Shown here piece by piece: positions 1 to 63,548 of a stretch of 64,000 bases of DNA. The stretch is from a virus. The notes under the pieces were generated by a model, which was not told the origin of the DNA, ran no database searches, and saw nothing but the letters and a program-made list of their open reading frames with translations. How positions within the stretch are numbered: the stretch's first letter is position 1; each line of letters begins with the position of its first letter. The translations under genes and the position numbers were made by a program. The stretch covers positions 64,001 to 128,000 of IMG/VR virus record IMGVR_UViG_3300045988_179268. One strand, 5' to 3'.

Positions 1-20
1 AGTCTGTTGTTGCGTCGGCG

Positions 21-1265
21 GTGGCTGGCTGTGTCGGGTCTACACTTTTCTTCACTGGGTGGGGTGTTCATTTAGGTGATTCTACCTATCTGACTCGCAC
101 ATATGGGGTTGTGGGTTCTGCCGCTGATGGCATGTATAGTGGACTGGATGACTTTTTCGGGTTTAAGGCTCAGATTAAAGGGGATGATGGGCGAGGTGGC
201 GTTGTCACTTATGCTGGTAGCGACAGCATGGGCGTGACGGATAAGGGGTTGCTGTACGCCCCTAAGCCTTCCACTGAGTTTAAGAATGAGTCATGCCCTA
301 CATACCCGGCAGGCGTGAATGGCTCCTCTGCTGATGCACCTAAAAGTGTGGGGGATAGGGTGGCGGGGTGGTGGGCTCCGTCGTTAAGGTCGAGGACTCA
401 GGTTGTTCAGGGTGCCCAGGTTACGCCTTCGGGGTTCAGTAATAATGCTGTGACGTTGCCTGCCGCGCCCAATGGTGTCTGGTATGCCTCCGGGTCGCCG
501 TTAAGTTCTAATGAGGGTGCTTCCATTCTTGCTGGGCATATTAATCTCAACGATGGTTCATTGTCGCCGTGGGGTTATTTGCATAGGCTTGATAAGTGTT
601 CCCATATTTATATGAATGACGAGCATGGTAATCGTCATGAGTTTGTTGTGACCGGCATGTACCTAGTGAAGCAGGAAGATTTAGCTTCACATAGTGAGCT
701 GTGGCGTAAAGACGGTGATAAGAAAGCGTATTTCATCACTTGCTCCGGCAGTTCTGTTGGTACTGACGGTACGCAGGAAGCGTCCTCAACTTTCTTATTC
801 AATTACGAATATAATTTGGTTGTTGAGGGCACCCCGGTTGATGGTTCTTACCCGAAGCCTACCGCTTCCCCTAGCGCTACAACTCGCACACCTGTTGTGA
901 CTGAGGTCCCAGCTACGGTTACTGAAACTCCTAGTGCCTCTCCGTCGCACACTGCTGAACCTAGTACGCAGGCTCCCGCTCCTGCAACCGAAGCCCAGCC
1001 TCCTGCTGAGTCTGCGCCTGTAGTGACGAGTGACCCGGCGGCTGTTCCTCATGTTGAGGCTACACCGGCGGTTGCGGCTAACAATAACGCGGATAAGAGT
1101 TCGAGTTCTAACGCGGCAGTTGCGCCCATCACAAGGGATACTGCTACTGCTAAGCCTGCTCCGGCGGCTACACGTTCAACGTCCACTGCAACACCTAATA
1201 ATAAGCCTTCCGCTTCGGCATCGCCAAGCCCTAAGCCTTCTGCTTCTAAATCGGCTAACCGTTAA
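21..1265 (+). CDS. Sortase-fold (class F-like) protein with a long Pro/Ala/Thr/Ser-rich C-terminal tail; probably 5'-truncated by the window edge
   Basis: The frame is open back to nt 3. N-terminal stretch is hydrophobic. SILAGHIN (His) and AYFITCSG (Cys) are spaced and flanked like the sortase His / TLxTC core. I could not find the usual downstream catalytic Arg (..YNLVVEG). The last ~140 aa are low complexity. Confidence 0.5.
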   Translation: MAGCVGSTLFFTGWGVHLGDSTYLTRTYGVVGSAADGMYSGLDDFFGFKAQIKGDDGRGGVVTYAGSDSMGVTDKGLLYAPKPSTEFKNESCPTYPAGVNGSSADAPKSVGDRVAGWWAPSLRSRTQVVQGAQVTPSGFSNNAVTLPAAPNGVWYASGSPLSSNEGASILAGHINLNDGSLSPWGYLHRLDKCSHIYMNDEHGNRHEFVVTGMYLVKQEDLASHSELWRKDGDKKAYFITCSGSSVGTDGTQEASSTFLFNYEYNLVVEGTPVDGSYPKPTASPSATTRTPVVTEVPATVTETPSASPSHTAEPSTQAPAPATEAQPPAESAPVVTSDPAAVPHVEATPAVAANNNADKSSSSNAAVAPITRDTATAKPAPAATRSTSTATPNNKPSASASPSPKPSASKSANR

Positions 1266-1340
1266 AAGTTGGGGTTAGATAAGCCACCTAACGCTATGTC
1301 TTTAGAAAGTATCTTTAGACCGTTAGGTGGTTTTTTCTTT

Positions 1341-2138
1341 ATGGCACATGAACAGATTGCGTTGCTGGATGCTAACGATAAGGTTGAGATTGCTCAGAGG
1401 CAGTTCGTGAAGAATCGTGAGCCTCGTTGCCCTGTTGTGATGATTTATGACTGCTCTCATTCTATGTTTATGGGTGACCGCCCTATGATTGATGAGTTGA
1501 AGCGCGGGCATGAGCTGTTACAGGTTGAGCTTCTTGAGGATGTTGTTGCGTCTGAGCGTGCTGACATGTCTTACATTATGTATGGTACTGAGGTTGCTCC
1601 GCCTACTATGTTCGCTACCCCTGGTGAGTGTGATGATGCCACTCAGGAGAAGGACAGGTTTAATAAGCTTGATTTTCAGGACATGGAGTTTACGTCTACA
1701 AATAAGGCGATTTTAGCGGCTATTGATGCTGTGGAGGAACGTCTCAAGCATTACGGCAACAGTGTCCCTCATTATGCGCCGATGATTTTCTTGATTACGG
1801 ATGGTCAGAGCAATGATGATAACGACATGTATGAGCCGGATGTTACGATGCGTCAGGCGGCAGTGAACGCTCTCCGTAGTAGGGTTGCACCGAATGGTAA
1901 GTGGACGTTTATGCCTATCTATATTTCTACGGGTTCCGCGTCGGTTGATGCTGAGATTCGTGATTCGTTGTCGATTTACCCGGTGGCTCCTGCGCCTCAG
2001 CCTGTGGCTTTGAAGCCTGGTAGTTTGATGGAGTTTTTCAGGTGGGTTTCTGCGTCTATGCAGAAGCGTTCGGCTTCACGCACTGAGGAAGCGGTGGCGT
2101 TCCCTGATGCTTCAAGTTGGGTTATGCCGGGAGCATAA
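1341..2138 (+). CDS. TerY-like cytosolic von Willebrand factor A (vWA) domain protein
   Basis: MIDAS-like DCSHSM (DxSxS) follows the hydrophobic strand VVMIY; later IFLITDGQSNDD. No signal peptide or LPXTG. Start moved from TTG 1269 to ATG 1341 (MAHEQ..). Confidence 0.7.
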   Translation: MAHEQIALLDANDKVEIAQRQFVKNREPRCPVVMIYDCSHSMFMGDRPMIDELKRGHELLQVELLEDVVASERADMSYIMYGTEVAPPTMFATPGECDDATQEKDRFNKLDFQDMEFTSTNKAILAAIDAVEERLKHYGNSVPHYAPMIFLITDGQSNDDNDMYEPDVTMRQAAVNALRSRVAPNGKWTFMPIYISTGSASVDAEIRDSLSIYPVAPAPQPVALKPGSLMEFFRWVSASMQKRSASRTEEAVAFPDASSWVMPGA

Positions 2139-2184
2139 GGTATCCTTGACTGAATTGTTCTGTGTATTTTGGAAGGCGTGATTT

Positions 2185-3069
2185 ATGAGTGATGCGTTTT
2201 TGTATGACTGGTGTTTAGTGTCTGGTCGTTCCGTCCCGAAGCCTGTTTATCATGACGAGGAAACTAACCAGGATGCTTATGGTTCGTGGTGTGATGAGGC
2301 TGGGCGTGCTGTGATTGTTGCATGTGATGGGGCTGGTTCGTTGGCTAAGTCTCGCATTGGGGCACGCATTGTCGCTGACACTATTGTTTCTGAGGGGCGC
2401 GCCGCGCTTGAGAGGTTCACCCCTTCGGGTGATGCCTCTGAGGATGCTGAGGCTTTACGTGAGAGTATTCTTGCCGCGCTTGCTATGGCAATGAACACGG
2501 TGTGGGGTGCGCAGGATTCCGATGAGATGGGATGTACTGTTGCGGCGGCTATGTTCTGCGAGGGCGCATTTGCGTATGTAACTTTGGGCGATGCGTTTGT
2601 TCTGGTTGGCGATTATGCTGGTTCTACCCCTAAGTATCAGTCTCATGTCGAGATGTGGGATGCTCCAAATATTACGACGTTTACCACATCTGATAACCCG
2701 TACATATTAGTGTCCTGTGGTACGGGCGCTACTTGGTGTATGGTTGCTTCGGATGGGATGAAGAATCCTTTGGTTCGGGCGGCGACAGCTGACAGTGATG
2801 AGGCTATTGAGGAATCGTTGTTCCGTGAGGGTGATGATGGCGAACCTCCTCTGTATCTGGTGTTGTTCTCTTCAAAGCATACTGACGACTTTTTAGCCCA
2901 TTTGGAGCGTGAGAAGTATCTTGACGATGATACTACGTTTGTTATGGCTGGTTGTTTGAATAAGCCTGCTGATGGGTCTTTAAGGATGATTACTGAGTCT
3001 GCTAAGGCGAAGCTTGTCCCTGGTGATTATGGGTTCGTTGAACGTCTCCAGCTGGGCTTAGATAGTTAA
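2185..3069 (+). CDS. PP2C-family Ser/Thr protein phosphatase
   Basis: Motifs VIVACDGAGS, MVASDGMKNPL and LDDDTTFVMA match the PP2C metal-binding motif order (DGxG ... SDG ... DNxT-like). Confidence 0.7.
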   Translation: MSDAFLYDWCLVSGRSVPKPVYHDEETNQDAYGSWCDEAGRAVIVACDGAGSLAKSRIGARIVADTIVSEGRAALERFTPSGDASEDAEALRESILAALAMAMNTVWGAQDSDEMGCTVAAAMFCEGAFAYVTLGDAFVLVGDYAGSTPKYQSHVEMWDAPNITTFTTSDNPYILVSCGTGATWCMVASDGMKNPLVRAATADSDEAIEESLFREGDDGEPPLYLVLFSSKHTDDFLAHLEREKYLDDDTTFVMAGCLNKPADGSLRMITESAKAKLVPGDYGFVERLQLGLDS

Positions 3070-3151
3070 TTTTTGTCATGAGGGTGCTCACCTGTTCTAC
3101 CTTTCCGGTGGGCAGGGTGGGTACCCTCATCTTTTTTGAGGGGAGTTATTT

Positions 3152-5086
3152 TTGGCTGATTATATTGCCCGCTTAGCGGATGGGAAATCTTTCCCTGTTA
3201 GGCTGGAAGATTCACCGTTAGGTCGTGGTGGTGAAGGCGCTGTTTATGCCGTAAGTTCTGTAGGTTCTTCAACGTTGGGGTCTGCACATGATTTGGTAGG
3301 GAAGATTTACCACCATGACGAGTCTAAGCACGCACAGCGTGAAGCTAAGTGTTTGGCGATGGTTGCGAGTGTACCTCAGACTGATTCGATTGTGTGGAAC
3401 TTAGGTAACTTGTATGACACGAATGGCGAATTTGCGGGCTTCTTAATGAAGAGGTTGCAGATGGATGTTTACCGTAGTTTCATGGAGGTAGCTCATACTC
3501 GACATAGGCGCAAACGTTTCCCCGAGTGGTCTGTTATGCACGCCCTTCTTATGGCTAGAAACCTCGCTGTAGCTATTGACGCTGTACATACTGCCGGGCA
3601 TATGGTTGGCGATGTGAACGAGTCGAATGTTCTTGTGGCTAAGGACGCTACTGTGCGTATCGTGGACGCGGATAGCGTTCAGATTAGCGCGGGGGATAAG
3701 GTGTACCCCTGCGTGGTGGGTAAGCCTGAGTTTACTGCGCCTGAGATTGGCGAGGGTAGTTATGCGGAGGAACGCAACCGTAGAACTGTCGCTACGGACA
3801 TGTTCGCTTTTGTGGTGATGCTCTTTAATGCTTTAATGGGTAGGGCTCACCCAACAACTTGTAATTACAAAGGTGAGCATAAGGATGTTACAACGCTGAT
3901 TGATATGGGGGTTTACCCTACCTTTGTTCCAAAGTTACCGCGTGGTTTTTCGAAGTTGGATGAGCTGGAGTATGAGGCTATCCCGAGTAGGGTTCATGAC
4001 GTGATTGGGCGGGGTTTGTCTAGTGACCCTGCTAAGCGTCCAAGTTTCGATGAAGTTATCGCTGTTTTTGACGAGTTGTTTAAACGTGACGATGATGGGT
4101 ATGTTAATCTAACGCAGTGTTCTGTGTCGCCTTTGCATTGGTGGGATGCGCGTGATGGGGCTTCTTGTCCTATGTGTCGTTTCGCTTCCCGTAAGCCGGG
4201 CGCTGACATTTGGGGTGAGGATAAGTCTGCTGAGGACATGTCAGCTATTCTAGCTAAGGCTGAGAAGAAGCAGGCGAAGCGGAAAACAAAGTCAGCTAAG
4301 ACCACCCCTGGTGTTCAAGCACCTGGTTTGAAGGCTGTCCTCGCGAGGAAGAAAACTGTTGCCCCGCCAATACCAACGGGGCAAGGTACTCAAGGTCAGC
4401 CTTATCAGGGTGCTACACCTGTTCAAGGTGCTACCCAGCAGTCGGGTGCATCTCAGGGGAATACGGCGGCGGGTAGGTTGCCTGGCGCGCCACCAGATGT
4501 GCAGAAAGTGTCGGGCAAGCTTGCTGTCCTTGATGAAGATGGAAATTTGGTTGCCCGACCACCTATCTTAACTCTGGTTAAAGGTGATTCTTACCGTATT
4601 GCTTTTGATGCTTTGTCTGCTGAGAATCCCCGTATTATGCCGTGGGTGTCCTCGTACCGGGCGGTGCCTATTTGGTGGGTGGCGCTCCTTGCGTGTGTTG
4701 TTGCTTCGTTGGCGTGGTGGTTTGCCGCGCCGGGGATTACGGCATGGGTGGTGGCGGCTATTTTTGATGGCGGGGTTCCTGCCCATATCCTGCCTATTGT
4801 TGCGGGTGTCCAGTTTGCGATATGGGCTTTACCTGCGATAGCCGTTGGTTTGAGGTTCTTAAGTGGTCTGGTGTTATGGTGGCGGCGTGCCCGAGAGGTG
4901 AAGGAGAATGGTTATGGGGCGGTCGTTTTTGAGTCTGCCGGTCAAACTATTTTAAGTGTGGCACTTACGTCGCTGGTGTCTGGTATTCTTTTACCTGCAT
5001 TGTTACTCATTAATGTGCTTTTGAAGATAATCTATGAGATAATTTATAGTATCTTTTACTCAGGCGACTCTGCCAACAGGCGTTAG
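3152..5086 (+). CDS. Ser/Thr protein kinase fused to a Cys-rich (zinc-ribbon-like) segment, a Gln/Gly/Pro linker and a C-terminal polytopic membrane domain
   Basis: Kinase motifs: G-loop GRGGEGAVYAV, Lys in VGKIY, catalytic loop GDVNESNVLV, DFG-equivalent IVDADS, APE in EFTAPE. CSVSPLHWW..CPMCR follows the kinase. About 5-6 hydrophobic helices lie in the last ~190 aa. TTG start is preceded by GAGGGGAG. Confidence 0.8.
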   Translation: MADYIARLADGKSFPVRLEDSPLGRGGEGAVYAVSSVGSSTLGSAHDLVGKIYHHDESKHAQREAKCLAMVASVPQTDSIVWNLGNLYDTNGEFAGFLMKRLQMDVYRSFMEVAHTRHRRKRFPEWSVMHALLMARNLAVAIDAVHTAGHMVGDVNESNVLVAKDATVRIVDADSVQISAGDKVYPCVVGKPEFTAPEIGEGSYAEERNRRTVATDMFAFVVMLFNALMGRAHPTTCNYKGEHKDVTTLIDMGVYPTFVPKLPRGFSKLDELEYEAIPSRVHDVIGRGLSSDPAKRPSFDEVIAVFDELFKRDDDGYVNLTQCSVSPLHWWDARDGASCPMCRFASRKPGADIWGEDKSAEDMSAILAKAEKKQAKRKTKSAKTTPGVQAPGLKAVLARKKTVAPPIPTGQGTQGQPYQGATPVQGATQQSGASQGNTAAGRLPGAPPDVQKVSGKLAVLDEDGNLVARPPILTLVKGDSYRIAFDALSAENPRIMPWVSSYRAVPIWWVALLACVVASLAWWFAAPGITAWVVAAIFDGGVPAHILPIVAGVQFAIWALPAIAVGLRFLSGLVLWWRRAREVKENGYGAVVFESAGQTILSVALTSLVSGILLPALLLINVLLKIIYEIIYSIFYSGDSANRR

Positions 5087-5165
5087 AGTGGCTTACGGGT
5101 TTCCAGCTAAGTTGGGGGTTGCTTGAGTTTTTAAGTGACCCCCAACTTTTTGTAAGGAGTTAATA

Positions 5166-8266
<3,101 letters not shown>

Positions 8267-8303
8267 CGAAGCGCCATTACTTACTGACAAGCCAATATTT
8301 TTG

Positions 8304-8336
8304 AAGGCTGGAAGTTTGCTGTGAACTTCCAGCCTT
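8304..8336 (+). terminator. Hairpin terminator after ligA
   Basis: aaggctggaagtt (8304-8316) pairs perfectly with aacttccagcctt (8324-8336). A T-containing tail follows. Confidence 0.65.
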
Positions 8337-8357
8337 TGCTATATTTATCAAACCGGG

Positions 8358-8386
8358 TTGCAAACATCAGCAATTTTCGGTATAAT
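8358..8386 (+). promoter_or_regulatory. Near-consensus sigma-70-type promoter
   Basis: TTGCAA (8358-8363), 17-nt spacer, TATAAT (8381-8386), in an AT-rich gap. It would start a ~700-nt leader before rpf. Confidence 0.45.
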
Positions 8387-9091
8387 TAACCTTTAATCCA
8401 ACTTGTGCAAGATTGTATGTTTCTGTCATCTATTGTTGCAAAACTTGACGGCTTGTATCATACTATAAGTACAGGCGAGGATGAATCTGATGTAGTTATA
8501 CATTATGCTAATCCAAGCCAATAATCGAATCAATGCTAAAGCATAGTCACTACTACCAGCCCCCCCCTTACAAGACATTTAAATCCATCCACCGTCCTGG
8601 TTGCAATTTTTGTAACCGCCCCATATTTTTTTTTGACGAGATGCAGATTTGAACCGTCTTTACAGGGCATTGAGGCTGGGAGAAGGATTGCCTTAGATAC
8701 TTGGTTCAACTATATATGTAACCCTAAGCGTTCCGCGAGGGGCTAGAGGTGCTGTAGGGTGCCTATAACAGGTTTTGCCTGTTATGAATTAAATGCAATA
8801 TTTAAACCTATCTTATCTCAGTGGTTGTTCCTTTGATTAGGTTCAGCCCGTGTATCTGAACTCATTTCTGAGGAGGATACACTCGGTTCTTCTTCACGCC
8901 CCCACAGTTGGGGATGCACTCTGATTAGCTAATTCATAGAATGGCTGGTCACTTCAAGGGTGTATCGGATTCTGTGGTGAGCCGCCCACGAAGTTGAACT
9001 AGAAATTTAGCCCACTTTACACAAGAAGGGCGGGCGGAGGCGCGTTTGAGCTCTGGGGACGGGGCGAGCGAGGGCACCCTTAAGGAGTATT

Positions 9092-9892
9092 ATGAAGAAC
9101 ATTTCCATTCGTCGTGCCGCTGTAGCTCTTGCACTTGGTGGTCTTTCCGTTGGGGCGCTTGCTGTTCCTTCGGCTAACGCCGCTGATTTGGCTACTTGGG
9201 AAAAACTCGCTCAGTGTGAGTCGGGTGGTAATTGGTCTATCAATACTGGCAACGGTTTCTACGGCGGTTTGCAGTTCACTCAGCAGTCGTGGAATGGTGT
9301 TGGTATGAGTGGTTCGCCGCATACGGCTTCGAAGGAAGCTCAGATTGAAGCGGGCGAACGTCTTCTTGCTTTGCAGGGTTGGGGCGCATGGCCCGCCTGC
9401 ACAGCTAAATATGGTCTTTCTGGCGCGGCAACACCTACGTACACTGATACTGGTGTAGCAAAGTCTGCCGCTTCTACTTCGGCGGTATCTAGCGCCGCTG
9501 TTGTTGCTCCTCAGAGCAATACTCAGACTCCGGTTACTCAGCCGCAGGCTCCTGTGGCTGTTCAGGCTCCAGCTGTTGCTGAGTCCACGCCGGTTGCACA
9601 GGAACCTGTTGTTGAGGCTCCGGCTGTCACTTCTGCTGATGCGGCTTCTACTGCCGCTGTTGAATCCGCACCTGTAACCCCTGTGGTTGAGCCTGCCCCT
9701 GTTGAGACGGTTAAGGCTCCTCGTGTAGCTTCTTCTACTTATCAGGTTGTTGCTGGTGATACGCTGTCTCTTATTGCTAACCGTCTTGGTGTAGCTGGAG
9801 GCTATCAGGCTATTGCGGATGCTAATGTTGATGTAATTTATGATGTGAACCTTATTTTCCCCGGTCAGGTTTTGACTATTCCGGGACAGTAG
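9092..9892 (+). CDS. rpf: Secreted resuscitation-promoting factor (Rpf transglycosylase-like domain) with Ala/Pro/Val-rich linker and C-terminal LysM
   Basis: Signal peptide ending ..PSANA. Rpf core ATWEKLAQCESGGNWSINTGNGFYGGLQFTQQSW. LysM YQVVAGDTLSLIANRLGV..IFPGQVLTIP. RBS AAGGAG. Confidence 0.9.
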   Translation: MKNISIRRAAVALALGGLSVGALAVPSANAADLATWEKLAQCESGGNWSINTGNGFYGGLQFTQQSWNGVGMSGSPHTASKEAQIEAGERLLALQGWGAWPACTAKYGLSGAATPTYTDTGVAKSAASTSAVSSAAVVAPQSNTQTPVTQPQAPVAVQAPAVAESTPVAQEPVVEAPAVTSADAASTAAVESAPVTPVVEPAPVETVKAPRVASSTYQVVAGDTLSLIANRLGVAGGYQAIADANVDVIYDVNLIFPGQVLTIPGQ

Positions 9893-9979: not shown

Positions 9980-10023
9980 ACTTGTGCCCCTGAGTTATCG
10001 CAAGGTATCTCAGGGGCACAAGT
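9980..10023 (+). terminator. Hairpin after rpf
   Basis: 15-bp perfect stem: acttgtgcccctgag (9980-9994) with ctcaggggcacaagt (10009-10023). Confidence 0.6.
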
Positions 10024-10066
10024 GTGTTTAAAAGCCATTTCGCGGGCTTTCCATATGAACACGCAC

Positions 10067-10115
10067 AGAGGGTGCCCACCAGAAACTTGCAACGGTTTTC
10101 TGGTGGGCACCCTCT
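10067..10115 (-). terminator. Hairpin after the minus-strand RepA-like gene
   Basis: 17-bp perfect stem: agagggtgcccaccaga (10067-10083) with tctggtgggcaccctct (10099-10115). It lies just downstream of the stop at 10135 on the minus strand. Confidence 0.6.
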
Positions 10116-10134
10116 AGTTATGGAAGCCCTGCTT

Positions 10135-12750
10135 TTAGTAGTACATGATGGGGTACTCATCAGTAGGCTCAGGCTTAGGGTTCATGATACCGTCCAGGAC
10201 GGGTTTCCTGTCCTTAGCGCCATTTACCCATTTAAGGATAGCGGCGCGCGCCTCAGCTTCCTCATCATTACTGACAGGAGGTAGAGATGCTTCATCAATG
10301 ACTTCTGATTCTACCGGGTCAGCGTTAAAGTTCGCCAGGTACCCATCAAGGGTTTCTTCGGCATCGACATACTTGTAGTGTGCGTCCACTCTATCCCACG
10401 GCGCTAGAGTGGACGCGACGTTCTTAGGCATGTTGGTGCAAATTTCACGCTTCGCAGTGTGGGCAGGGGTGTCCTGACGCGGCGCAGTATCGCTGACGGT
10501 AGTGACAGGCTTCTCCGAAGCAGGGTTCACTACAGGGCGGGCAGGCTCATGTGTGACAGTTTCTTTTACTACCTTAACGTGACGCACAGGCTGAGGCTCG
10601 GGAACACTAACAGGCACCTCGGTGACACTCTTGGGTTTTGCCGGGCGGGTAGCGCGGGTTTCAGCAATGGTGCGCTTGATGTCCTTGCCAAAGTCTTCGG
10701 TGTAGAGGACGCGGCAGTAGTAGTCGTCACCCTTGGTGTATCGGCTTCCTTCGTTGGGGTACATGTACCCGCCGGAGGGTAGCTTAATGCGGACAGGCGG
10801 GAACTTAACACCCTTCTTCCACTCATTGTAATTATTGACGGGGATGATACCAGCCTGGAGTGCGTCAGAGTATGCGTAGTGTTCCGGGGTGTCCGCGTTC
10901 AGGGTAATGATGTAGTCCTCGTCCATGTACTTCTTGAGGAAGTCTTCATCGAGAAGGTCGAAGTTAGCTACAGCAGGGTTCCTGAGTAACGCCTCAGACA
11001 TGTAAACGGTGGAGGGTGCGCCGAAGTTACTGTCCTTACGTTTCGCAGGCTCAGTCTTCGGGGTAGCTTCACTGTTAAGGCGGGGGAGTCCGTCAGTGGC
11101 TACGTGAGGCTCACTCACGGGCTTGTCCTGGTTGGAGGTGTTGTTCTGTACGGCAGGCTCCTGGATAGCGCGTGCGGGGCGTACAGTAACCGGGGTTTCC
11201 CTCGGGGTATCCATGATAGACGGCTGGTTCTTAATGGAAGCTTCCACATAAGCCTGCCAGCTATTAACCTTCTTCATGTTGCCGTTGCGTGCGGAAGCGG
11301 CGTACCTGTCAATAATAGTATCGACAATACGCTCCCAGTCTTCACTAATTGCAGGAAGATAAACGCCAACAGCGCCACTAATCTTAGTAGATAGTAACGC
11401 AAGGTCTACAGCACGGTAAATATTGCCCTTACGGGGTGCGCGGATAGGGATAAGAACCTGCTCATCCTTAGCGGCAGACTCATTCAAAGTCTCACGAGAC
11501 ACAGCGCTACGAACAGCCTTCGAAAGAGTGTCACCTTTCTTCACCGCATGAGGGCGAACAGCCTTAACACCAGAACGATACGCCTGAACCATAAAGCCAG
11601 CAAAGCCCTTACGACCTTTGCCGCCGACAAGGGACACAACATCCTCAGCACCCTCAACCATCAGCAAAGAACGCACCGCATTCACCGCATTACGGTAAAC
11701 ACTACGCATCTTATGAACAGAGGAAGAGAACACGGCGAACTGGCGTGCTAAATGCGACCACGCAACCCACACCTTCGAAGTCTTAATGTTACCGCTACGC
11801 AACGAAGCCGCACGCGCCAACACAAGCGCCAACACATCCAAAGCAACAGCCGAAGAACGAACCAGCTTACTACCCCACATACCAGCAGGAACAGCAACCA
11901 CATTACCACTGTTCACATAGTCAAAGAACTCATCCGAAACACGAACAACCATGAACCCAGACTCATTACCCTCCAAGCTATACATGATGCCCATCGAAGA
12001 ATCCTCAACATCAGCGGCAACACTGAACGCATGAAGAAGCTCCCCACGCCCACCCTCCTGCGCACGCTCAAAAACAGCAGAACGCAAACCAAGGCACATA
12101 CGGAAAGTATCAGCAAAATGGCGGTACCCCTCAGCAGATAAAGCAGGCACACCAGCCAGGCGCGCCAAAGCACGCGGCTGAGAAGGAACCACAAACTCAG
12201 CAGAACCCGTCTCCAACACGCGAGAAGCAATAAACGCTAAGATACGGCGAGCCATAACACCCGAAGGCATCTCCAGAACCTCACCACCGCTAACGCTAAG
12301 AACAGGCGAAGGGACATGCTGTACAACACGTGCCAGCGAAGAACGCTCCCACACACCCTGCTCATTAAAAGCAGAACCAGCAGAGACAGAACGCGCAGAC
12401 ACCGGCAAACCACCATGCACATAAGCAAGCGGCAACATCCAAGCATCACGCTCAACATCTACACCAAGAACATCCTCAACAGACGCAGAATCCGGTAACA
12501 GGCAACCGTCAGAGTCTACAACACCATACGGACTGTAAGAACTACCCTGTTCACGCTTATTCTCAGCATGAGCAAGAACAGCGTCCTTACGTGCCCTCAG
12601 ATACAAAGAATCACCCGTGAAAGTCTTAGCAGACTGCACAGGCACAAAAACAGACGCAGACTCAGGTTCAACAGGAACCATCACCGCGTCTTCAAAATTC
12701 TGAGAGCCCGCCTTAGCGATATTCACGTGCGCCTCCTTCCAAGGTGCCAT
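10135..12750 (-). CDS. Large chimeric protein. The N-terminal ~440 aa resemble plasmid-encoded RepA-type initiators. The C-terminal ~430 aa form a Pro/Thr/Lys-rich region plus an unknown domain.
   Basis: From memory of the plasmid-encoded RepA family: PSGVMARRILAFIASRVLETGSAEFVVP..ALARLAGV and SSAVALDVLALVLARAASL..VWVAWSHLARQF match its conserved blocks. Start taken at MAPWKEAHV (12750), not the upstream alternative start at 12795. Confidence 0.45.
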   Translation of the reverse strand: MAPWKEAHVNIAKAGSQNFEDAVMVPVEPESASVFVPVQSAKTFTGDSLYLRARKDAVLAHAENKREQGSSYSPYGVVDSDGCLLPDSASVEDVLGVDVERDAWMLPLAYVHGGLPVSARSVSAGSAFNEQGVWERSSLARVVQHVPSPVLSVSGGEVLEMPSGVMARRILAFIASRVLETGSAEFVVPSQPRALARLAGVPALSAEGYRHFADTFRMCLGLRSAVFERAQEGGRGELLHAFSVAADVEDSSMGIMYSLEGNESGFMVVRVSDEFFDYVNSGNVVAVPAGMWGSKLVRSSAVALDVLALVLARAASLRSGNIKTSKVWVAWSHLARQFAVFSSSVHKMRSVYRNAVNAVRSLLMVEGAEDVVSLVGGKGRKGFAGFMVQAYRSGVKAVRPHAVKKGDTLSKAVRSAVSRETLNESAAKDEQVLIPIRAPRKGNIYRAVDLALLSTKISGAVGVYLPAISEDWERIVDTIIDRYAASARNGNMKKVNSWQAYVEASIKNQPSIMDTPRETPVTVRPARAIQEPAVQNNTSNQDKPVSEPHVATDGLPRLNSEATPKTEPAKRKDSNFGAPSTVYMSEALLRNPAVANFDLLDEDFLKKYMDEDYIITLNADTPEHYAYSDALQAGIIPVNNYNEWKKGVKFPPVRIKLPSGGYMYPNEGSRYTKGDDYYCRVLYTEDFGKDIKRTIAETRATRPAKPKSVTEVPVSVPEPQPVRHVKVVKETVTHEPARPVVNPASEKPVTTVSDTAPRQDTPAHTAKREICTNMPKNVASTLAPWDRVDAHYKYVDAEETLDGYLANFNADPVESEVIDEASLPPVSNDEEAEARAAILKWVNGAKDRKPVLDGIMNPKPEPTDEYPIMYY

Positions 12751-17555: not shown

Positions 17556-20156
17556 ATGAACCAGGAAGCGCTAAATTACCAACGAGAAGGTAATGAGGTG
17601 CCCAATGATAGTCAGAAACCAGCTGAAAACTCGGCTGTAAACGACTTTGTGGGCAATCTGATATACACGCTCATCAAATGGGCGTTCATTATCATCGCCG
17701 TAGTGCTTTGTAGCCCAGCACTCATCGCCGCCACCATCATCATCAGCTGGTCATACTACTACCTGACCCGAAGGAAAATGATGCAAGCCTCCGAAGTGGG
17801 GTTATATATGGGCGGCACGGCGTTAGGCGGGTTACTTCTCTGGTTCATCTTAGATGTCCCGAAGAAGTTTGCCAGCGCCTTCAACTCACTGATGCAAGCA
17901 CCCGGCGAATACCTCTCACCAACAGGGATATTTGACCTTGTTGGCACTTTCAGTACACCCTTCACCATCGCAGGAATCATCCTGGGCGCGCTACTCGGAT
18001 GGGCACTCGCCGCCAAAATCCAATACGACTACAACCATAACGAAGAACTAAAGTACAATGACTCATTCTGGATGAGTGAGAAGAAATTTAAGTACCGCCC
18101 AACCCCAAAACAGCGCCGCAACCGCAACAAACTCGAAGAGGAAATCAGCGAAGGCGCTAACTTCATCCTGCCCAACGAACGCCCAGACATGTCGCCAGGC
18201 GTAGCATACGGCATCAACGAAGAATCAGGCGAAGGCGTATGGTTCACTGTGCCCGAAATTCCCCGCCACGTCATCAAAGTCGGCGCACCTGGTAGTGGCA
18301 AAACTGCAACCACCGAAAGCGAAATTCGCGCCAACGCAAAACTAGGAATCACAAGCATCCTTGTAAACATGAAAGCCGACCTCGGACTTGCCCGAAAACT
18401 AGCGAACTACGCCGCCGAAGAAAACGTAAACTTCTACCATTTTACACAAGGCAACCCCGCCACCGGCGAATACGATAACGCCTACAACCCCCACGGTCCC
18501 GCATACCTTGACCCATTCGCCGGGCTTAAAACAGCTGAAAAGCTGGACATTGCCATCGGCTTCCAGAAATACCAAGACGAGGCTCAGAAATACAAGAACG
18601 ACGTGTGGGCGACCCTCCAGATACTCCTCAAAGCTCTAGACGAACTAGAGGAATACATGAAGGAAAAAGAACGCACTAACCCCGCCGAATATGTCCTCCT
18701 GGCAGACGAACTAGAGCAAGCTGGAATCCCTTGGCATAACGGCGAGTTTAGGCGATTCTGTGGTGCCCTCATGTCCCCCGAAGTGCTACTCAACCACCTA
18801 CCCGAAGGCAACCTCACGGGCGCTGAACTACGCCGCCGAATCCTTGAAGGTGCAAGCGGTAACGTCAAAACATCCTGGGAAACTCCACGTGGCAACGTCA
18901 GCATCATGCTCAACTCAGCATACGGGCGCTGGCTTGGGCTTCCTCAAAATGGGGAGCCCTACATCGACTTTGACAAAATTGTCGCCCCTAACGCAACGCC
19001 GTCCATTGTACTGCTTGATTTCAATGCTGACTCTGAGGTTGAAGTCAGTACCGGCTTCGGTAAGATGCTTGCAAGCCTCCTCACCAGCATGTCATCACAC
19101 CGCCGCCGCGACGACACCCAAAAGCTGAACGTCATCCAAATTTTCTTTGACGAGTTCCAGACCATTCCGCTAACCAGTATCGCAGGTCTGCTGGAAAAAG
19201 CACGCTCCTCAAATGTTGGTATCTCCCTCGGACAGCAGAACCTTGAACAGCTTTACGAAAAGAACGACCCAGCGGCAGTGAACAGCCTCCTAGTGAATGC
19301 AGATACCCTTGTTGTACTAGGCGGCATGAAGGGTGGCGAAACCGCTAAACGCATCGTCACCCTCGCCGGAACCAAAGAAATTAAACGTTACAAAGTGGAC
19401 TCAAAGCGTGAACGTGTCCTTTGGAAGAACCTTATCCAATGGGACGATAACCGCCGCTACTACAAGTCTGTAGAAAAGGTCACCGTCCCCCGCGTCTCCG
19501 AAGAACAGCTCATTAATCTCCGCCGACCTAACCCAGACAAGGGAACCTTCTATACGGAAGGCATGATTATTCGAAAGACCCCGTACATCGACCCCATCAC
19601 AGGTGAAACCCGTGAAAGGATGGACGGCACCCTAACACACATCATCCTCCCTAAACAGGTACTCGAAAAGCTACCCCGCGTACCGTCCGAACCTGTCGTC
19701 CCACCGACTACCACCTACACCCCCAAACACTACCCTAAGCTAAATAAAAAAATCTCAAAGCCTCAACCTAAAACTAGTACTCATGAACAAACCAAAAAAC
19801 AGCAAGCCCCTAAGGTAAGCCCCCAACCAGCCGTGGTAAAGCCTGCACCTAAAGCGCGTCCAGTGGTCACGCCGCCAACAGCCACGCCGCCACCGCCGCC
19901 ACCACAGCCCACAAAAGCTACCCCGCAACCAGCAGGGAACGCTATGAACAAACCAAAGAAACCGCAACTAACCCAAGCCCCCGCGAAAGGACAAAACAAC
20001 GCACAGCCGAAAAAGCCACGGCTAACCCAACCCGCCAAACCCGCCGAAGAAGCACTCCCACCAGTGCAACTCCAACCACGCATCATGCGCGGAGTAATTT
20101 CTGAAAGCGTCCAGACCCGCAAAACCCAACAGACAAAGAAAGACGAGAACCAATAA
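17556..20156 (+). CDS. Type IV secretion coupling protein (VirD4/TraG/TraD-like) with a Pro/Lys/Gln-rich C-terminal tail
   Basis: N-terminal TM helices. Walker A VGAPGSGKTAT. Walker B IQIFFDEFQTI, followed by RSSNVGISLGQQNLEQL (TraG-D_C-like). Tail has near-repeats KPKKPQLTQAP / QPKKPRLTQPA. Confidence 0.8.
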   Translation: MNQEALNYQREGNEVPNDSQKPAENSAVNDFVGNLIYTLIKWAFIIIAVVLCSPALIAATIIISWSYYYLTRRKMMQASEVGLYMGGTALGGLLLWFILDVPKKFASAFNSLMQAPGEYLSPTGIFDLVGTFSTPFTIAGIILGALLGWALAAKIQYDYNHNEELKYNDSFWMSEKKFKYRPTPKQRRNRNKLEEEISEGANFILPNERPDMSPGVAYGINEESGEGVWFTVPEIPRHVIKVGAPGSGKTATTESEIRANAKLGITSILVNMKADLGLARKLANYAAEENVNFYHFTQGNPATGEYDNAYNPHGPAYLDPFAGLKTAEKLDIAIGFQKYQDEAQKYKNDVWATLQILLKALDELEEYMKEKERTNPAEYVLLADELEQAGIPWHNGEFRRFCGALMSPEVLLNHLPEGNLTGAELRRRILEGASGNVKTSWETPRGNVSIMLNSAYGRWLGLPQNGEPYIDFDKIVAPNATPSIVLLDFNADSEVEVSTGFGKMLASLLTSMSSHRRRDDTQKLNVIQIFFDEFQTIPLTSIAGLLEKARSSNVGISLGQQNLEQLYEKNDPAAVNSLLVNADTLVVLGGMKGGETAKRIVTLAGTKEIKRYKVDSKRERVLWKNLIQWDDNRRYYKSVEKVTVPRVSEEQLINLRRPNPDKGTFYTEGMIIRKTPYIDPITGETRERMDGTLTHIILPKQVLEKLPRVPSEPVVPPTTTYTPKHYPKLNKKISKPQPKTSTHEQTKKQQAPKVSPQPAVVKPAPKARPVVTPPTATPPPPPPQPTKATPQPAGNAMNKPKKPQLTQAPAKGQNNAQPKKPRLTQPAKPAEEALPPVQLQPRIMRGVISESVQTRKTQQTKKDENQ

Positions 20157-56181: not shown

Positions 56182-56235
56182 GGTACAATAGAAGGAGTTT
56201 TTTATTACCATAAAGCAGAGCAAAACGGAGCGATT

Positions 56236-58962
56236 ATGACGTTAGAAATTCCCAAAAACTTACCCACCGTGAACCCTGCAACACTTATGCCATACGATGT
56301 CTATGTAGTCATAGACGGAACCGACATTCATCTCACCGCGTCTTCGAATCATAACTTCACAGGTGCGGAATTTCTGCGTTCACTCTACCGCCGTGCATAC
56401 ACTTCCGAAACTATGCGTGTCACCACTAGCGGAACCATCATCACACTCAGCACCACGGCTCTGCACGCCCCAACCATGCACGCACTGGCTGAGCTACTGA
56501 GCTACACGCTGTCAATCCCCGCTATTCGACTAACGGGCGACTCTAAAGCGTTATATAACGTGATGCCCTGGAAGGCGGCGGCTTTCTACGCACCCTCAAC
56601 TACAGAAAAGCATGGCGCAAGCTTCTTCAAAATTGCGCCTCTAAGCCCTCGGGGTGTCAATGATGAGACATTTAAGTATCTGCGTCACCTTGGAGGCTGG
56701 AAATCCGCTGACGATAATACGTGGCGCGTCCCCATGAATAAAATATTTAAGTTCATCCAGAGCAATACTCCCGGCGAACGCGGCATTGCAATTACCCGTT
56801 CCCTAGCAAGCCTGCTAGTGGAACCAATTGGTGCGCCATTTGACGGAAACGTACTCAGCCTCAAAGATACCCCCATTAGCGCACTGCATTTCGCTAAGTA
56901 TGACACACGCCCACAGAATAGTAAGCGCGAAAAAGGTAAAACCCTCGCGGAAAGCCTCACGTCCTTTGGGTATAAGACCATTTTTGATGTTCTATACAAT
57001 CTGCCTCGTAGGTACCTCGACCTCAGCAACCCTGTAACCTCACTGCGTGGACTCGACGCAGGGGAAAACGCATACATTGTTGGTCGAGTTAGCAACTGGC
57101 ACCCTATGAAAGAAAAGAAGGGTGCATGGTGTACCATTAAGACCTCTGAGAGGAACATTAAGGTAGCTTTTTGGGGTCCATACCAGTGGCGAGAAAAGAA
57201 ATTCCCCGTAAGCACGGAAGTTATCGTTGGGGGAAAGGTTACTTTCTACAATGGTCTAACTCTGACCGCTGACTTTATCGACACCCTAGATGTGTCATCG
57301 ACAGACAACCCGTATGTCCCTATCTATGCGCAGTCGCCCGCCCGAGGCATCATGACGAACCTCATCTCAAACCTTGTGCGTGAAGCCTTGACTCGCCTCA
57401 CCATCGACGGAAACCCTGGCATTGAGCAGAACGACTATTGGGCTACTGAAACGCTCCCTGATGGCATCCTGCCCATCAATGAAGCTTTGATGCGCCTACA
57501 CTTCCCTGAAAAAGAAGATGACGTTGTTGAAGCAATCGACTCTTTAGCTTGGTACGAACTTGTGCTTATGCAAGTTATTGTGAAAACCTCTGCCGCCGCT
57601 GGCAAAGATGCAAAAGGCATCAAAAACTCAGGGCGAAAAAGTAACTACGCTCAGCAAGTTATTCAAGGGCTACCATACACCCTGACGAATGACCAGCAGA
57701 CCGCCTACAAAACGCTAACGGAACGCATGGGGGAAAGCGCCCCTATGGATGCGCTACTATCTGCTGACGTGGGCGCAGGCAAGACTATCATCCAGATTTT
57801 AGCCGCACTCACCGCTGTAGATTCGGGGAGACAGGCTGTAATTGTTGCGCCTACAGAGATTCTGGCGCGCCAAATTTATGCCGCCGCGCAGACTGCAATA
57901 GGTGAAGTTGAGGGCTGTGAGCCACTGTACCTGTCTGGCTCAATGAAAGCGGCAGAACGTAAGCAAGCTATCCAAGACATTAAAGACGGAACCGCAAAGC
58001 TGATTATAGGTACCCACACCCTTCTAAACGCAACAGAGTTTCACGATTTAGGGTTTGTGTGCTTTGACGAACAGCAAAAATTTGGCGTAGAACAGCGTGA
58101 CCGACTGCTCAGCGTCCGCCCAGACGGAGCTATCCCCGATTTTCTCCTGGCAACTGCAACACCTATCCCGCGAACCATCGCGCAAATTGAATACGGCGAA
58201 GTGGACTTCATTCAGATGCAAGAAAAGCCTGCTGGTCGTAAGCCTGTCGAAACGGAATGGGTGGAATCTAAATATGACCACCTACTCCATCACCCTAAGC
58301 ACGCCGTATGGCACGACTTGAACAAGGAAATCAAAGCAGGGCACCAAGCATTCATTGTCGCCCCCCTGGTGGAAGAGAATAATGACTTGGAAGCACCCAG
58401 CGTTAAAGAACTTGCAAAAGACCTGCATGGAGTACTCCCCAAGGCTAAAATTGGTGTCCTACACGGCAAAATGAAACCTAAGGAACAAGAAGAAGCAATG
58501 AACTCTTTCCGCTCAGGCGAGACAGACGTTCTTGTCGCATCCACCATCGTAGAAGTCGGCGTAGACGTACCTAACGCTACACGCATCGTCATCATGGGTG
58601 CTGAACGGCTAGGTGCATCATCTCTACACCAGCTAAGAGGACGTGTCGGACGTAGCGACCTTCACGCGAAGTGCTGGCTTGTCAGCCCAGCAGAAACCAA
58701 AAGTGCCCAAGCGCGCATGGAAGCCCTAGTGAACTATGATGACGGATTCACCATCGCAGAAGCAGACACTGACACACGTGGTGAAGGTGACATTCTCACC
58801 AGCACACAGCACGGCATCACCCGCAACAGGTTCCTGCGTCTCAGCAAACACCGCCACATCATCCCTAGCGCCATTGAACACGCGGAAGCTATTGTATCTA
58901 ACCCAGAATACCGTGCCGAAGCACTGCATGACGCAAAAAAGTTCTTTAGCGATATGCACTAG
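56236..58962 (+). CDS. recG: RecG-like branched-DNA helicase with a ~280-aa N-terminal extension
   Basis: Wedge/OB GRVSNWHPMKEKKGAWCTIKTSERNIKVAFWG. Motif I SADVGAGKT. Motif II FDEQQKFG. Motif III ATATPIPRT. VLHGKMKPKEQE..FRSGETDVLVASTIVEVGVDVPNAT. Motif VI LHQLRGRVGRS. Start moved to ATG 56236 because 56161 lies inside the hairpin. Confidence 0.8.
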   Translation: MTLEIPKNLPTVNPATLMPYDVYVVIDGTDIHLTASSNHNFTGAEFLRSLYRRAYTSETMRVTTSGTIITLSTTALHAPTMHALAELLSYTLSIPAIRLTGDSKALYNVMPWKAAAFYAPSTTEKHGASFFKIAPLSPRGVNDETFKYLRHLGGWKSADDNTWRVPMNKIFKFIQSNTPGERGIAITRSLASLLVEPIGAPFDGNVLSLKDTPISALHFAKYDTRPQNSKREKGKTLAESLTSFGYKTIFDVLYNLPRRYLDLSNPVTSLRGLDAGENAYIVGRVSNWHPMKEKKGAWCTIKTSERNIKVAFWGPYQWREKKFPVSTEVIVGGKVTFYNGLTLTADFIDTLDVSSTDNPYVPIYAQSPARGIMTNLISNLVREALTRLTIDGNPGIEQNDYWATETLPDGILPINEALMRLHFPEKEDDVVEAIDSLAWYELVLMQVIVKTSAAAGKDAKGIKNSGRKSNYAQQVIQGLPYTLTNDQQTAYKTLTERMGESAPMDALLSADVGAGKTIIQILAALTAVDSGRQAVIVAPTEILARQIYAAAQTAIGEVEGCEPLYLSGSMKAAERKQAIQDIKDGTAKLIIGTHTLLNATEFHDLGFVCFDEQQKFGVEQRDRLLSVRPDGAIPDFLLATATPIPRTIAQIEYGEVDFIQMQEKPAGRKPVETEWVESKYDHLLHHPKHAVWHDLNKEIKAGHQAFIVAPLVEENNDLEAPSVKELAKDLHGVLPKAKIGVLHGKMKPKEQEEAMNSFRSGETDVLVASTIVEVGVDVPNATRIVIMGAERLGASSLHQLRGRVGRSDLHAKCWLVSPAETKSAQARMEALVNYDDGFTIAEADTDTRGEGDILTSTQHGITRNRFLRLSKHRHIIPSAIEHAEAIVSNPEYRAEALHDAKKFFSDMH

Positions 58963-62107: not shown

Positions 62108-62734
62108 ATGCGCGTATCTATCCAGGGATATGAAGCCCCTGTCTACCAGCCATACAACGGCGACGGCTCCCATAACGCCGCCGCCGGACATGCATCAACA
62201 GCACTCTACACGGGCAATGATATTGAGCGTAAAGTGTTTGAAGTGTTGCCTGATGAGTTGAAAGAAGCAGACACATTCCCAGATGAAACCGTCTACTGCA
62301 TCACCAACGCTTTCATCCAGATTATCGCAGAACTGCAACTTGCCTACCAGTTCTACCTTAATGAAACTCACGCACTTCCCATCACTACAGAACAGCAACG
62401 CGGGTTTAAGACCTCAGTATCTAACATGCGAGTCCAAGCAGTTGTTCGTCAAACTCAGGAACTTTTCTACCCACTGACCTACGACATTATTGAGCCACAC
62501 ATTGTGGAGCATGATATGGAAGCTATCACTGATTGGGTGCAGAAAATTAAGTCACGCGCGAACGTTGCTCTCGGCAGGATAGCCCAGAATTTCAGCCACA
62601 CATTTGCTGGTGTCCCAAGCCCACCCGAAGGGTACTATGTAGGTGAGGATGCTGAACACTATGAAACATTCGTGCAGGGCGAAAATAGCCACGACTATGC
62701 TCCCGTAGAAATCATCTCCCTCAACGCCTTATAA
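62108..62734 (+). CDS. Hypothetical protein
   Basis: ORF only. Confidence 0.45.
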   Translation: MRVSIQGYEAPVYQPYNGDGSHNAAAGHASTALYTGNDIERKVFEVLPDELKEADTFPDETVYCITNAFIQIIAELQLAYQFYLNETHALPITTEQQRGFKTSVSNMRVQAVVRQTQELFYPLTYDIIEPHIVEHDMEAITDWVQKIKSRANVALGRIAQNFSHTFAGVPSPPEGYYVGEDAEHYETFVQGENSHDYAPVEIISLNAL

Positions 62735-62755
62735 TCAGATAGAAAGACAACACAT

Positions 62756-63475: not shown

Positions 63476-63481
63476 CCAGGC

Positions 63482-63546
63482 AAATAGAACCTCTCAGATA
63501 TGTAGTATATAAAGCCTAAATACTACACGCTTGAGAGGTTCTATTT
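63482..63546 (+). terminator. Nested hairpin followed by a T-run
   Basis: Outer 15-bp stem: aaatagaacctctca (63482-63496) with tgagaggttctattt (63532-63546). Inner stem gtagtat/atactac. Followed by TTTTTG. Confidence 0.7.
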
Positions 63547-63548
63547 TT

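Follow-up and report, generated by a model that had tools for sequence, protein, structure and literature searches.

In E. coli, the yegL-pphC-yegI triad encodes a vWA protein, the PP2C phosphatase PphC and the Ser/Thr kinase YegI (bioRxiv 10.1101/303594, 10.1101/819920). Experiments have established YegI as an integral membrane kinase with two passes; it is active and trans-autophosphorylating, with activation kinetics of second order (bioRxiv 10.1101/819920). Anantharaman, Iyer and Aravind (2012) defined the TerY-P system, summarised by Bell et al. 2024 (PMC11090510), as a TerY-like vWA protein, a PP2C phosphatase and a Ser/Thr kinase (STK) with a C-terminal zinc ribbon. The latter paper, citing Anantharaman et al. 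2012, carries the hypothesis that TerY-P is a metal-sensing phosphorylation switch. According to PMC7699616 and PMC11090510, Gao et al. (2020) obtained protection against T7-like phages with TerY-P-like triads; in the triads that they tested, the kinase ends in an OB fold instead of a membrane tail (PMC11090510). TerY-P / YegLKI triads are widespread and their mechanism is unsolved; they are without a known signal, substrate or effector, even in E. coli.

The window analysed here, the whole 64,000-nt stretch, belongs to a 319-kb uncultivated record filed as a virus in IMG/VR. The original prediction placed a TerY-P-type triad at positions 1341-5086, and three plus-strand ORFs for a vWA protein, a PP2C phosphatase and a Ser/Thr kinase were found at exactly these coordinates, separated by 46 nt (vWA-PP2C) and 82 nt (PP2C-kinase). 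The vWA gene (1341-2138, +) starts with ATG and encodes 265 aa, the PP2C gene (2185-3069, +) encodes 294 aa, and the kinase gene (3152-5086, +), with a TTG start and a GAGGGGAG Shine-Dalgarno, encodes 644 aa. A TTG at 1269, given as the vWA start in the ORF list, is not backed by the N-termini of homologues. Pfam assigns all three proteins to the expected families, and domain content, gene order and homology to E. coli YegL/YegI bear out the prediction. Sequence comparison thus supports placing the triad in the TerY-P / E. coli YegL-PphC-YegI type, a kind of signalling system that is already known.

The vWA protein is TerY/YegL-like and predicted to be cytosolic. Its Pfam VWA score is marginal (26.0 bits against a cut-off of 23.8), and BLASTP gave 34% identity to E. 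coli YegL (E = 4e-21). The MIDAS site is intact, with D37-x-S39-x-S41, T118 and D154 invariant among homologues. A Ser-rich C-terminal motif (S237, S239, S244, S246) is also invariant and is the best candidate phospho-acceptor. The second protein has the features of a PP2C-type Ser/Thr phosphatase (PF13672 PP2C_2, 72.8 bits), and all its metal-binding aspartates (D30, D48-G49, D190-G191, D248-D249) are invariant across eight homologues including E. coli PphC, to which BLASTP detected no similarity.

The kinase begins with a Hanks-type Ser/Thr kinase domain of about aa 1-319 (3152..4108, +; Pkinase, 52.1 bits), containing the G-loop GRGGEGAV, K51, catalytic D154, N159 and D172. As predicted, all catalytic residues are kept: K51, D154, N159 and D172 do not vary among 14 homologues with identities as low as 30%. 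Foldseek matched the domain to PknA/PknB and eukaryotic kinases. A predicted zinc module of the form C-x5-H...C-x2-C follows (4109..4192, +; alignment and model). Fourteen family members all keep its C323, H329, C339 and C342, which align with the C..H..C..C of YegI, and the module was modelled as two short strands and a helix at pLDDT of about 90. Kinase domain and zinc module together showed 27% identity to YegI by BLASTP (E = 2e-28). The sequence is consistent with an STK fused C-terminally to a zinc ribbon. The Cys/His cluster that the original prediction had described is therefore present but is no extension peculiar to one kinase; it is a family-defining feature, since the TerY-P definition in PMC11090510 includes the C-terminal zinc ribbon. 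The predicted low-complexity Gln/Gly/Pro linker (aa 351-448; 4202..4495, +; model and alignment) begins as a Lys-rich helix and continues as a disordered stretch rich in Q/G/P/A/T, with pLDDT <50 for residues ~380-448 and with length and sequence variable among homologues.

The C-terminal part of the kinase comprises two modules. Residues 449-497 (4496..4642, +) form a juxtamembrane module of a beta hairpin and two short helices according to alignment and model, with G464, R469, P470, L475 and E491 invariant. The hairpin is weakly similar to the repeat vvDxxGNPvxxPP of unrelated repeat proteins. Residues 498-636 (4643..5059, +) form the membrane tail, in which hydropathy and AlphaFold indicate three long hydrophobic helices (508-537, 544-586 and 596-636; pLDDT 84 for the tail modelled alone). 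A membrane domain of five to six helices had been predicted; the conserved hydrophobic tail stands, the helix count finds no backing in the model, and three to five membrane passes are possible. By hydropathy, the architecture of three hydrophobic blocks recurs in every family member, including those at only 30% identity. Applied to YegI, the hydropathy method recovered the mapped TM segments at 391-437, plus one extra (351-369) outside the mapped region. A positively charged, K/R-rich loop, RRAREVKEN, lies between helices 2 and 3 (R579 invariant) and is compatible with the cytoplasmic side. No homologue of the tail outside the family was found among 1.84 billion representatives, and no match to its fold was found in the PDB. 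No domain follows the last helix, and HhH was not matched in Pfam. All parts of the triad showed dN/dS of 0.07-0.25 and are under purifying selection.

Relatives were surveyed in 80 related loci from named genomes (L009-L088). In 75 of the 80, which span five or more phyla, the kinase gene is immediately preceded by the vWA and PP2C genes in the same order. In at least 74 of the 80, the encoded kinase has the zinc module and, about 90 residues past it, one or more hydrophobic segments. The adjacent, co-oriented linkage is also kept in L003-L006, L008 and L089-L092. Homology extends to all three genes even in distant triads such as L006 and L008; the L008 triad has a DUF4011 helicase-nuclease and a Dam methylase as neighbours, a setting that resembles a defence island. 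The kinases of the element family described below form a separate clade with 100/100 support; C-terminal membrane segments are not exclusive to it. The view that the kinase is unusual in being membrane-embedded finds no support, given the survey and the integral membrane kinase YegI: kinases of this group are as a rule, and not exceptionally, anchored in the membrane past the zinc module. What is new here is only the membrane tail of the kinase.

The triad is flanked, as predicted, by a sortase-domain gene (21-1265, +) and by a gene for a 293-aa protein (5166-6047, +) followed by ligA (6128-8266, +), and the block 1-8000 is co-oriented with a GC skew of +0.11 to +0.24. The 293-aa protein is fast-evolving (dN/dS ~0.4) and had no match in Pfam, NCBIfam or PADLOC profiles. 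Homologues occupy the same place in L003 (34% identity), L089, L091 and L005, and none is present in L092; since related elements often, though not invariably, carry the gene after the triad, its product is a possible accessory partner. FtsK-like ATPase genes lie 6-8 kb upstream of the triad. A TraG/TraD-type coupling protein is encoded at 17556-20156 (TraG-D_C/TrwB match), and a VirB4-like AAA_10 ATPase (118 bits) just past the window end, at G000:C1:128160-129239; models for the HK97 capsid and TerL (PF05065, PF03354) found no match on the 319-kb record. These findings support the view that the triad sits on a conjugative element. Its place in the element backbone is fixed across a family of elements of 90-420 kb seen solely in metagenomes. 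No McrBC/CoCoNuT, Ter or WXG100 partner adjoins the triad, and no separate effector gene is evident in the block.

Strong hairpins were found between the genes of this block. The first (1277..1340, +; -26.4 kcal/mol, z = -4.0) lies with a U-tract at the junction of the sortase-domain and vWA genes, is terminator- or attenuator-like, and contains the vWA Shine-Dalgarno AGGTGG in its 3' arm. The CCACCTAAC...GTTAGGTGG hairpin arms recur at the identical junction in L089 and L091. The second, also with a U-tract (3076..3138, +; -38.3 kcal/mol, z = -5.1), lies between the PP2C and kinase genes; it is kept in L089, has a different sequence in L091 and is absent in L092. Because this strong terminator-like hairpin separates vWA-PP2C from the kinase gene, co-transcription of the three is not assured. 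A third hairpin with a U-tract follows the kinase gene (5109..5155, +; -31.8 kcal/mol, z = -4.6), and an intrinsic terminator with a 17-bp stem (6064..6101, +) closes the block before ligA.

We consider it probable that the triad is a phosphorylation switch of the TerY-P / YegL-PphC-YegI type in the backbone of a giant actinobacterial conjugative element, working as follows. The three long C-terminal helices would hold the kinase at the cytoplasmic membrane, with the catalytic domain, zinc module and juxtamembrane beta module on the cytoplasmic face. A signal, most likely an envelope or invader-associated event, would be sensed either by the membrane tail or by the vWA MIDAS, on binding of a ligand or metal, and would lead to trans-autophosphorylation of the kinase, as in YegI. 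The active kinase would then phosphorylate the cytosolic vWA protein and/or other targets, and the PP2C phosphatase would reset the switch. Its most likely role would be that of a stress- or invader-sensing switch guarding the element and its host from phage or rival mobile DNA.

Several findings weigh against this explanation: the VWA score barely above threshold, the lack of recognition by PADLOC, the OB fold in the triads tested so far, the lack of an effector gene, the hairpin between the PP2C and kinase genes, and the lack of a known substrate for YegI even in E. coli. Within the element family, the triad is also a fixed backbone module beside replication and envelope genes, not part of a variable defence island. 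PADLOC contains TerY models. Against the profiles of PADLOC-DB 2.0.0, the vWA protein had no match and the PP2C protein matched only at E = 0.025; likewise, none of eight vWA proteins of the clade matched any PADLOC vWA model, nor did a model recognise the PP2C proteins of the clade. The kinase matched generic kinase models only, such as PD-T4-6 and mad6. Its best match (PD-T4-6 PDLC04039, E = 1.4e-14) was confined to the kinase domain (profile positions 19-261 of 458) and appears to reflect generic kinase similarity; by sequence, the kinase is a member of the triad. Because these models do not recognise the triad, its anti-phage function is one that we infer.

The same fixed position might instead point to housekeeping of the element, a possible but clearly less likely reading, in which the triad controls envelope-linked functions (for example conjugation timing, display of the sortase-anchored surface protein or Rpf/LysM wall remodelling) in the manner of PknB/Stp-type pairs that control cell-wall processes. 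All relatives sampled, including those with kinase identities as low as 38-49%, share the gene order sortase - vWA - PP2C - STK - Rpf/LysM - Rep - primase, and the triad is present in all four IMG/VR contigs carrying a Rep homologue (4/4); yet synteny of related elements can be inherited without a functional link. A likely sortase substrate lies just upstream (LPAIT motif, TM segment, KNRKRD tail), but strong terminators set the triad apart from the sortase gene and from ligA, the triads of cyanobacteria, proteobacteria and E. coli are without these neighbours, and neither sortase nor Rpf genes accompany those of L006 and L008. Since the kinase lacks an extracytoplasmic domain, it would sense events in or at the membrane, which also fits such control.

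A bolder version of the proposed switch, which we regard as rather unlikely, would make the triad an obligatory core of giant (90-420 kb) actinobacterial conjugative elements, with the three-helix module, of a kind not described before, itself sensing envelope breach, mating-pair or phage contact directly in the membrane and gating element replication, transfer or host suicide. If true, it would represent a new sensor-kinase class for mobile DNA and go beyond another TerY-P defence cassette.

Transmembrane effectors are common in abortive-infection systems. The activated kinase tail could oligomerise, permeabilise the membrane and kill the infected cell, with PP2C as a safety catch; the missing effector gene, tail helices of 30-46 residues, which exceed the need of a simple anchor, and the faster evolution of the tail than of the kinase domain fit this. 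However, throughout the clade, chromosomal YegI included (bioRxiv 10.1101/819920), the zinc module is as a rule followed by membrane segments, and therefore a simple anchor explains the tail. The tail also resembles no known pore former in fold or sequence and nothing points to toxicity, so we hold this reading to be improbable. Sensing of metal or tellurite-type chemical stress, the original proposal for Ter-linked TerY-P triads, with metal bound at the vWA MIDAS and the phospho-switch tuning a stress response, is very improbable despite the intact MIDAS site and the metal-sensing hypothesis for TerY-P (PMC11090510), since the block and its flanks showed no terC/terD/terZ-type or metal-transport gene and the context is one of replication, conjugation and cell wall.

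The phosphorylation switch remains our preferred explanation, and the clade offers a stripped-down triad with membrane helices as its only sensor domain. This pared-down triad, the invariant Ser-rich motif of the vWA protein and the fixed position in the element together provide concrete, testable substrate and sensor candidates.

Compared with E. coli yegL-pphC-yegI, the triad has the same three families in the same order and a kinase of similar length (644 aa, against 648 aa in YegI). YegI is a membrane kinase with a cytoplasmic catalytic domain and without an extracytoplasmic sensor domain, and the same is predicted for the kinase here. YegI has two membrane passes and then a cytoplasmic helix-hairpin-helix domain, whereas the present kinase has a beta module and three long helices with nothing after them; the catalytic-loop Asn is kept here (N159) and lost in YegI, and the E. 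coli triad is chromosomal whereas this one is on a mobile element. The triad shares with TerY-P, by its published definition, three components in one co-oriented cassette, often on mobile or defence-linked DNA; a multi-helix membrane tail like the present one is not mentioned in these TerY-P descriptions (Anantharaman 2012; PMC11090510). With the anti-phage system of Gao et al. 2020, named Gao_TerY by defence-finder tools, it shares the three-component logic of vWA, PP2C and STK, but in place of a C-terminal OB fold the kinase is predicted to have the zinc module, linker, beta module and three hydrophobic helices. The cyanobacterial, planctomycete and proteobacterial triad kinases of the survey are 30-33% identical to it over kinase and zinc module and share the upstream vWA and PP2C genes and the spacing of the first hydrophobic segment; they differ in having one or two TM segments followed by large TPR, WD40, pentapeptide or HhH domains, and they lie on the opposite side of the 100/100-supported branch. 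Specific to this locus are the separate kinase clade, the tail module and the fixed backbone place in the 90-420 kb elements; apart from these, the triad does not stand out within a system type that is already known.

Three co-oriented ORFs on the + strand encode a vWA protein of 265 aa (window 1341-2138), a PP2C phosphatase of 294 aa (2185-3069) and a Ser/Thr kinase (STK) of 644 aa (3152-5086), as originally predicted. The expected placement of all three proteins was obtained with Pfam: VWA matched at 26.0 bits (barely above the cut-off of 23.8), PP2C_2 at 72.8 bits and Pkinase at 52.1 bits. An NCBIfam search of the triad proteins gave kinase and PP2C matches only, far below cut-off. Alignment with homologues down to ~30% identity showed invariant MIDAS residues in the vWA protein (D37-x-S39-x-S41, T118, D154), invariant metal-binding residues in the phosphatase (D30, D48-G49, D190-G191, D248-D249) and invariant K51, D154, N159 and D172 in the kinase. 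Read from the ATG at 1341, the vWA protein has an N-terminus that agrees with those of its homologues, and no hydrophobic segment was seen on reading its sequence. Residues 233-246 form a Ser-rich C-terminal motif, F-x-W-x-S-x-S-x4-S-x-S, which is invariant in every triad vWA protein of the comparison, YegL of E. coli among them, and is a plausible candidate phospho-acceptor for the partner kinase.

Direct comparison was made with yegL-pphC-yegI of E. coli K-12, the sole biochemically studied triad. The vWA protein matched YegL with 34% identity (BLASTP, E = 4e-21), and the kinase matched YegI with 27% identity (E = 2e-28) in an alignment extending through the Cys/His module. BLASTP of the PP2C protein against PphC was not significant, so homology was taken from Pfam and from the invariant metal-binding residues, every one of which the two proteins have in common. 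By the published definition (PMC11090510), a TerY-P triad combines a vWA protein of the TerY kind with a PP2C and with an STK that bears a zinc ribbon at its C-terminus; all four features were found here. Scanning one genome per species (185,579 species) yielded 80 loci with kinase relatives, which are 28-40% identical across the kinase domain and mostly match across the zinc module too. HMMs made from the vWA and PP2C proteins placed both genes directly upstream of the kinase gene, in the same order, in 75/80 loci; among the five loci without a vWA match, at least two (L014 and L018) are truncated by a contig end. The shared domains, the matches to YegL and YegI and the conserved gene order bear out the TerY-P-type reading, and membership of this family is well supported at the sequence level. 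At another locus (L007, 5796-7685), a family member with 33% identity and the same tail has no adjacent vWA or PP2C gene and adjoins a Dam methylase gene, indicating that the kinase is able to exist outside the triad.

The 319,426-bp record, of which the window covers bases 64001-128000, has a 55-bp terminal repeat and is therefore circular. Its genes encode a TraG/TraD-type coupling protein, primase, DnaB, RecG, SbcC, LigA, an M23 peptidase and a lysozyme, with a VirB4-like ATPase just beyond the window end. Pfam models for HK97 capsid and TerL found no match in the 319-kb record, although divergent capsid genes may have escaped. The coupling protein, the VirB4-like ATPase and the lack of HK97 capsid and TerL matches agree with the proposed conjugative element and support this reading over the IMG/VR virus label. 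The gene order sortase-domain gene - vWA - PP2C - STK - (293-aa gene) - (ligA) - Rpf/LysM - Rep - primase is conserved from 85% to about 40% protein identity among related elements, and the triad is present in 4/4 IMG/VR contigs with a Rep homologue, which argues that it is a backbone module and not a cargo island. That the triad controls the element's own envelope-linked functions is conceivable, but we consider it rather unlikely. Divergence of the triad outpaces that of the neighbouring genes: compared with L003, a locus with a related kinase, PP2C is 35%, the kinase 49% and the primase 67% identical. The genes gave dN/dS values of 0.09-0.13, with 0.075 in the kinase domain and 0.23 in the tail; these values are rough since dS is saturated, but the triad is under purifying selection. 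A pseudogene or decaying triad was ruled out by the intact frames and dN/dS well below 1.

Several further features were observed around the triad. An Rfam lysM-Actino RNA at 8873-9091 (155 bits, gathering score 153.8) immediately precedes the gene for the Rpf/LysM transglycosylase (9092-9892); it accounts for the long leader at this gene and points to an actinobacterial host. Over the record, strand composition was seen to flip at about window 10000-12000, from G/T-rich + strand genes at 1-8 kb to C/A-rich + strand genes from 14 kb (skews up to 0.3-0.4), and thus the skew tracks position and not coding strand. A 403-aa Pro/Thr-rich surface protein (record positions 62611-63822, window -1389 to -178) has LPAIT, then a hydrophobic segment and then KNRKRD at its C-terminus, a series that resembles a sorting signal. 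Directly downstream is the sortase-domain gene (window -144 to 1265), whose product has an N-terminal TM segment; the two proteins are likely an element-encoded sortase-substrate pair and possibly a conjugative adhesin. Two FtsK-like ATPase ORFs (record positions 56222-57925) were found 6-8 kb before the window; after them come recX-recA and genes for a CPBP protease and a PD-(D/E)XK nuclease. TerY-P triads elsewhere are reported to adjoin FtsK/WXG100 modules (PMC4978471, PMC11090510).

Hairpins followed by U-tracts were found at the sortase/vWA junction (1277-1340, z = -4.0), at the PP2C/kinase junction (3076-3138, z = -5.1) and 3' of the kinase gene (5109-5155, z = -4.6), while the vWA/PP2C junction had no strong hairpin. 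The first two occur at the same positions in two loci with related kinases (L089 and L091), the second with another sequence, and in both the 3' arm includes the Shine-Dalgarno of the gene that follows. Terminator-like sites over window 1-9200 numbered 15 versus 11.7 +/- 3.1 expected, i.e. chance level; despite this, the three junction hairpins are strong individually. Expression of the co-oriented block may be divided into the units sortase, vWA-PP2C, STK and ORF293 (the 293-aa gene, 5166-6047) with attenuation between them, and the hairpins, as attenuators or translational gates, may fix the ratio of vWA-PP2C to kinase.

After its catalytic domain the kinase carries a Cys/His module, C323-x5-H329...C339-x2-C342, which is invariant in 14/14 aligned family members and for which AlphaFold2 gives a high-confidence model of two short strands plus a helix. 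The cluster noticed originally is thus present and invariant, but it is not an add-on, since it defines the family (PMC11090510). Residues 380-448 are Q/G/P/A/T-rich and disordered (pLDDT <50). They are followed by a small conserved module of a beta hairpin and two short helices (residues 449-497), in which G464, R469, P470, L475 and E491 are invariant. The juxtamembrane beta hairpin LAVLDEDGNLVARPP (window 4535-4630, residues 462-493) is weakly similar to vvDxxGNPvxxPPxxxthdGxnYyayYP, a tandem repeat of which unrelated repeat proteins that lack annotation (P0059-P0063) carry 4-6 copies. Three hydrophobic blocks make up the rest of the kinase and were modelled by AlphaFold as long helices (508-537, 544-586 and 596-636), the same three in the full-length run (pLDDT 78) and the tail-only run (pLDDT 84). 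Hydropathy recovered the same three blocks in every family member; this crude method also found the mapped membrane segments of YegI, with one extra call at 351-369 outside the mapped region. The 5-6 helices first counted are therefore not backed, and three to five membrane passes are predicted. A K/R-rich loop, RRAREVKEN, with invariant R579, joins helices 2 and 3 and is compatible with a cytoplasmic location.

Membrane embedding had been regarded as unusual for such a kinase. The kinase ORF was extracted from 74/80 loci, and all 74 have a C..H..C..C module at residue ~315-320 and at least one hydrophobic segment ~90 residues on, downstream of which the tails vary (TPR, WD40, pentapeptide repeats or helix-hairpin-helix). 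For YegI, PhoA-LacZ fusions demonstrated an integral membrane kinase that crosses the membrane twice and lacks an extracytoplasmic sensor (bioRxiv 10.1101/819920). Anchoring in the membrane downstream of the zinc module is thus the norm in the clade, and the kinase does not stand out by it.

What distinguishes the kinase is its tail. A phmmer search of the 205-aa tail against 1.84 billion representatives returned its own cluster only, plus 30-residue beta-hairpin matches to an unrelated repeat, and yielded no functional lead. Foldseek of the tail model against the PDB found nothing significant; the best match was TolQ at E = 1.9, and a TolQ/ExbB-like identity was dropped. The full kinase model matched generic Hanks kinases only. 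Megablast of window 1-9000 against plasmids gave no match, and tblastn of the kinase against 72,556 plasmids and 50,697 phages gave kinase-domain matches of at most 31% identity. Relatives with the full architecture were absent from the one-genome-per-species set (GTDB); members of the tail family, the kinases that share this tail, all come from metagenome contigs, many 88-420 kb long. In an ML tree of kinase plus zinc module, 20 tail-family kinases (tail presence checked in 16) lie on one side of a long branch with 100/100 support, and YegI, cyanobacterial and other kinases on the opposite side. The suggested separate clade was therefore recovered, but membrane segments themselves are not peculiar to it. 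We conclude that the tail is an undescribed module whose kinases form a distinct clade, and that this clade is fixed within one family of giant conjugative elements. That it is a pore-forming suicide effector appears improbable.

A YegI-like kinase switch is the best-supported mechanism, by analogy. The kinase, predicted to be membrane-anchored, would be activated by trans-autophosphorylation, as in YegI, and the cytosolic vWA partner would bind ligand or metal at its MIDAS site, following the published reading of the family. The invariant Ser-rich motif of the vWA protein, a plausible acceptor, would receive phosphate, and the PP2C phosphatase would reset the switch. Sensing of metal stress by the triad is very improbable.

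Recognition of the triad by PADLOC as a TerY-type defence system was looked for and was not obtained. PADLOC HMMs gave no TerY-type recognition of the triad proteins, of YegL, PphC and YegI, or of 8 vWA and 8 PP2C homologues, and the label of a detected defence system was rejected for this reason. TerY-P-like triads are reported to have protected against T7-like phages (Gao et al. 2020, as relayed by PMC7699616 and PMC11090510), and one distant family member adjoins a DUF4011 helicase-nuclease and a Dam methylase; by this analogy, a defence role is plausible. It is not established, given the PADLOC result, the position of the triad in the core of the element and the difference in kinase architecture: the triads of Gao et al. 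were tested systems with an OB fold where the present kinase has a predicted membrane tail.
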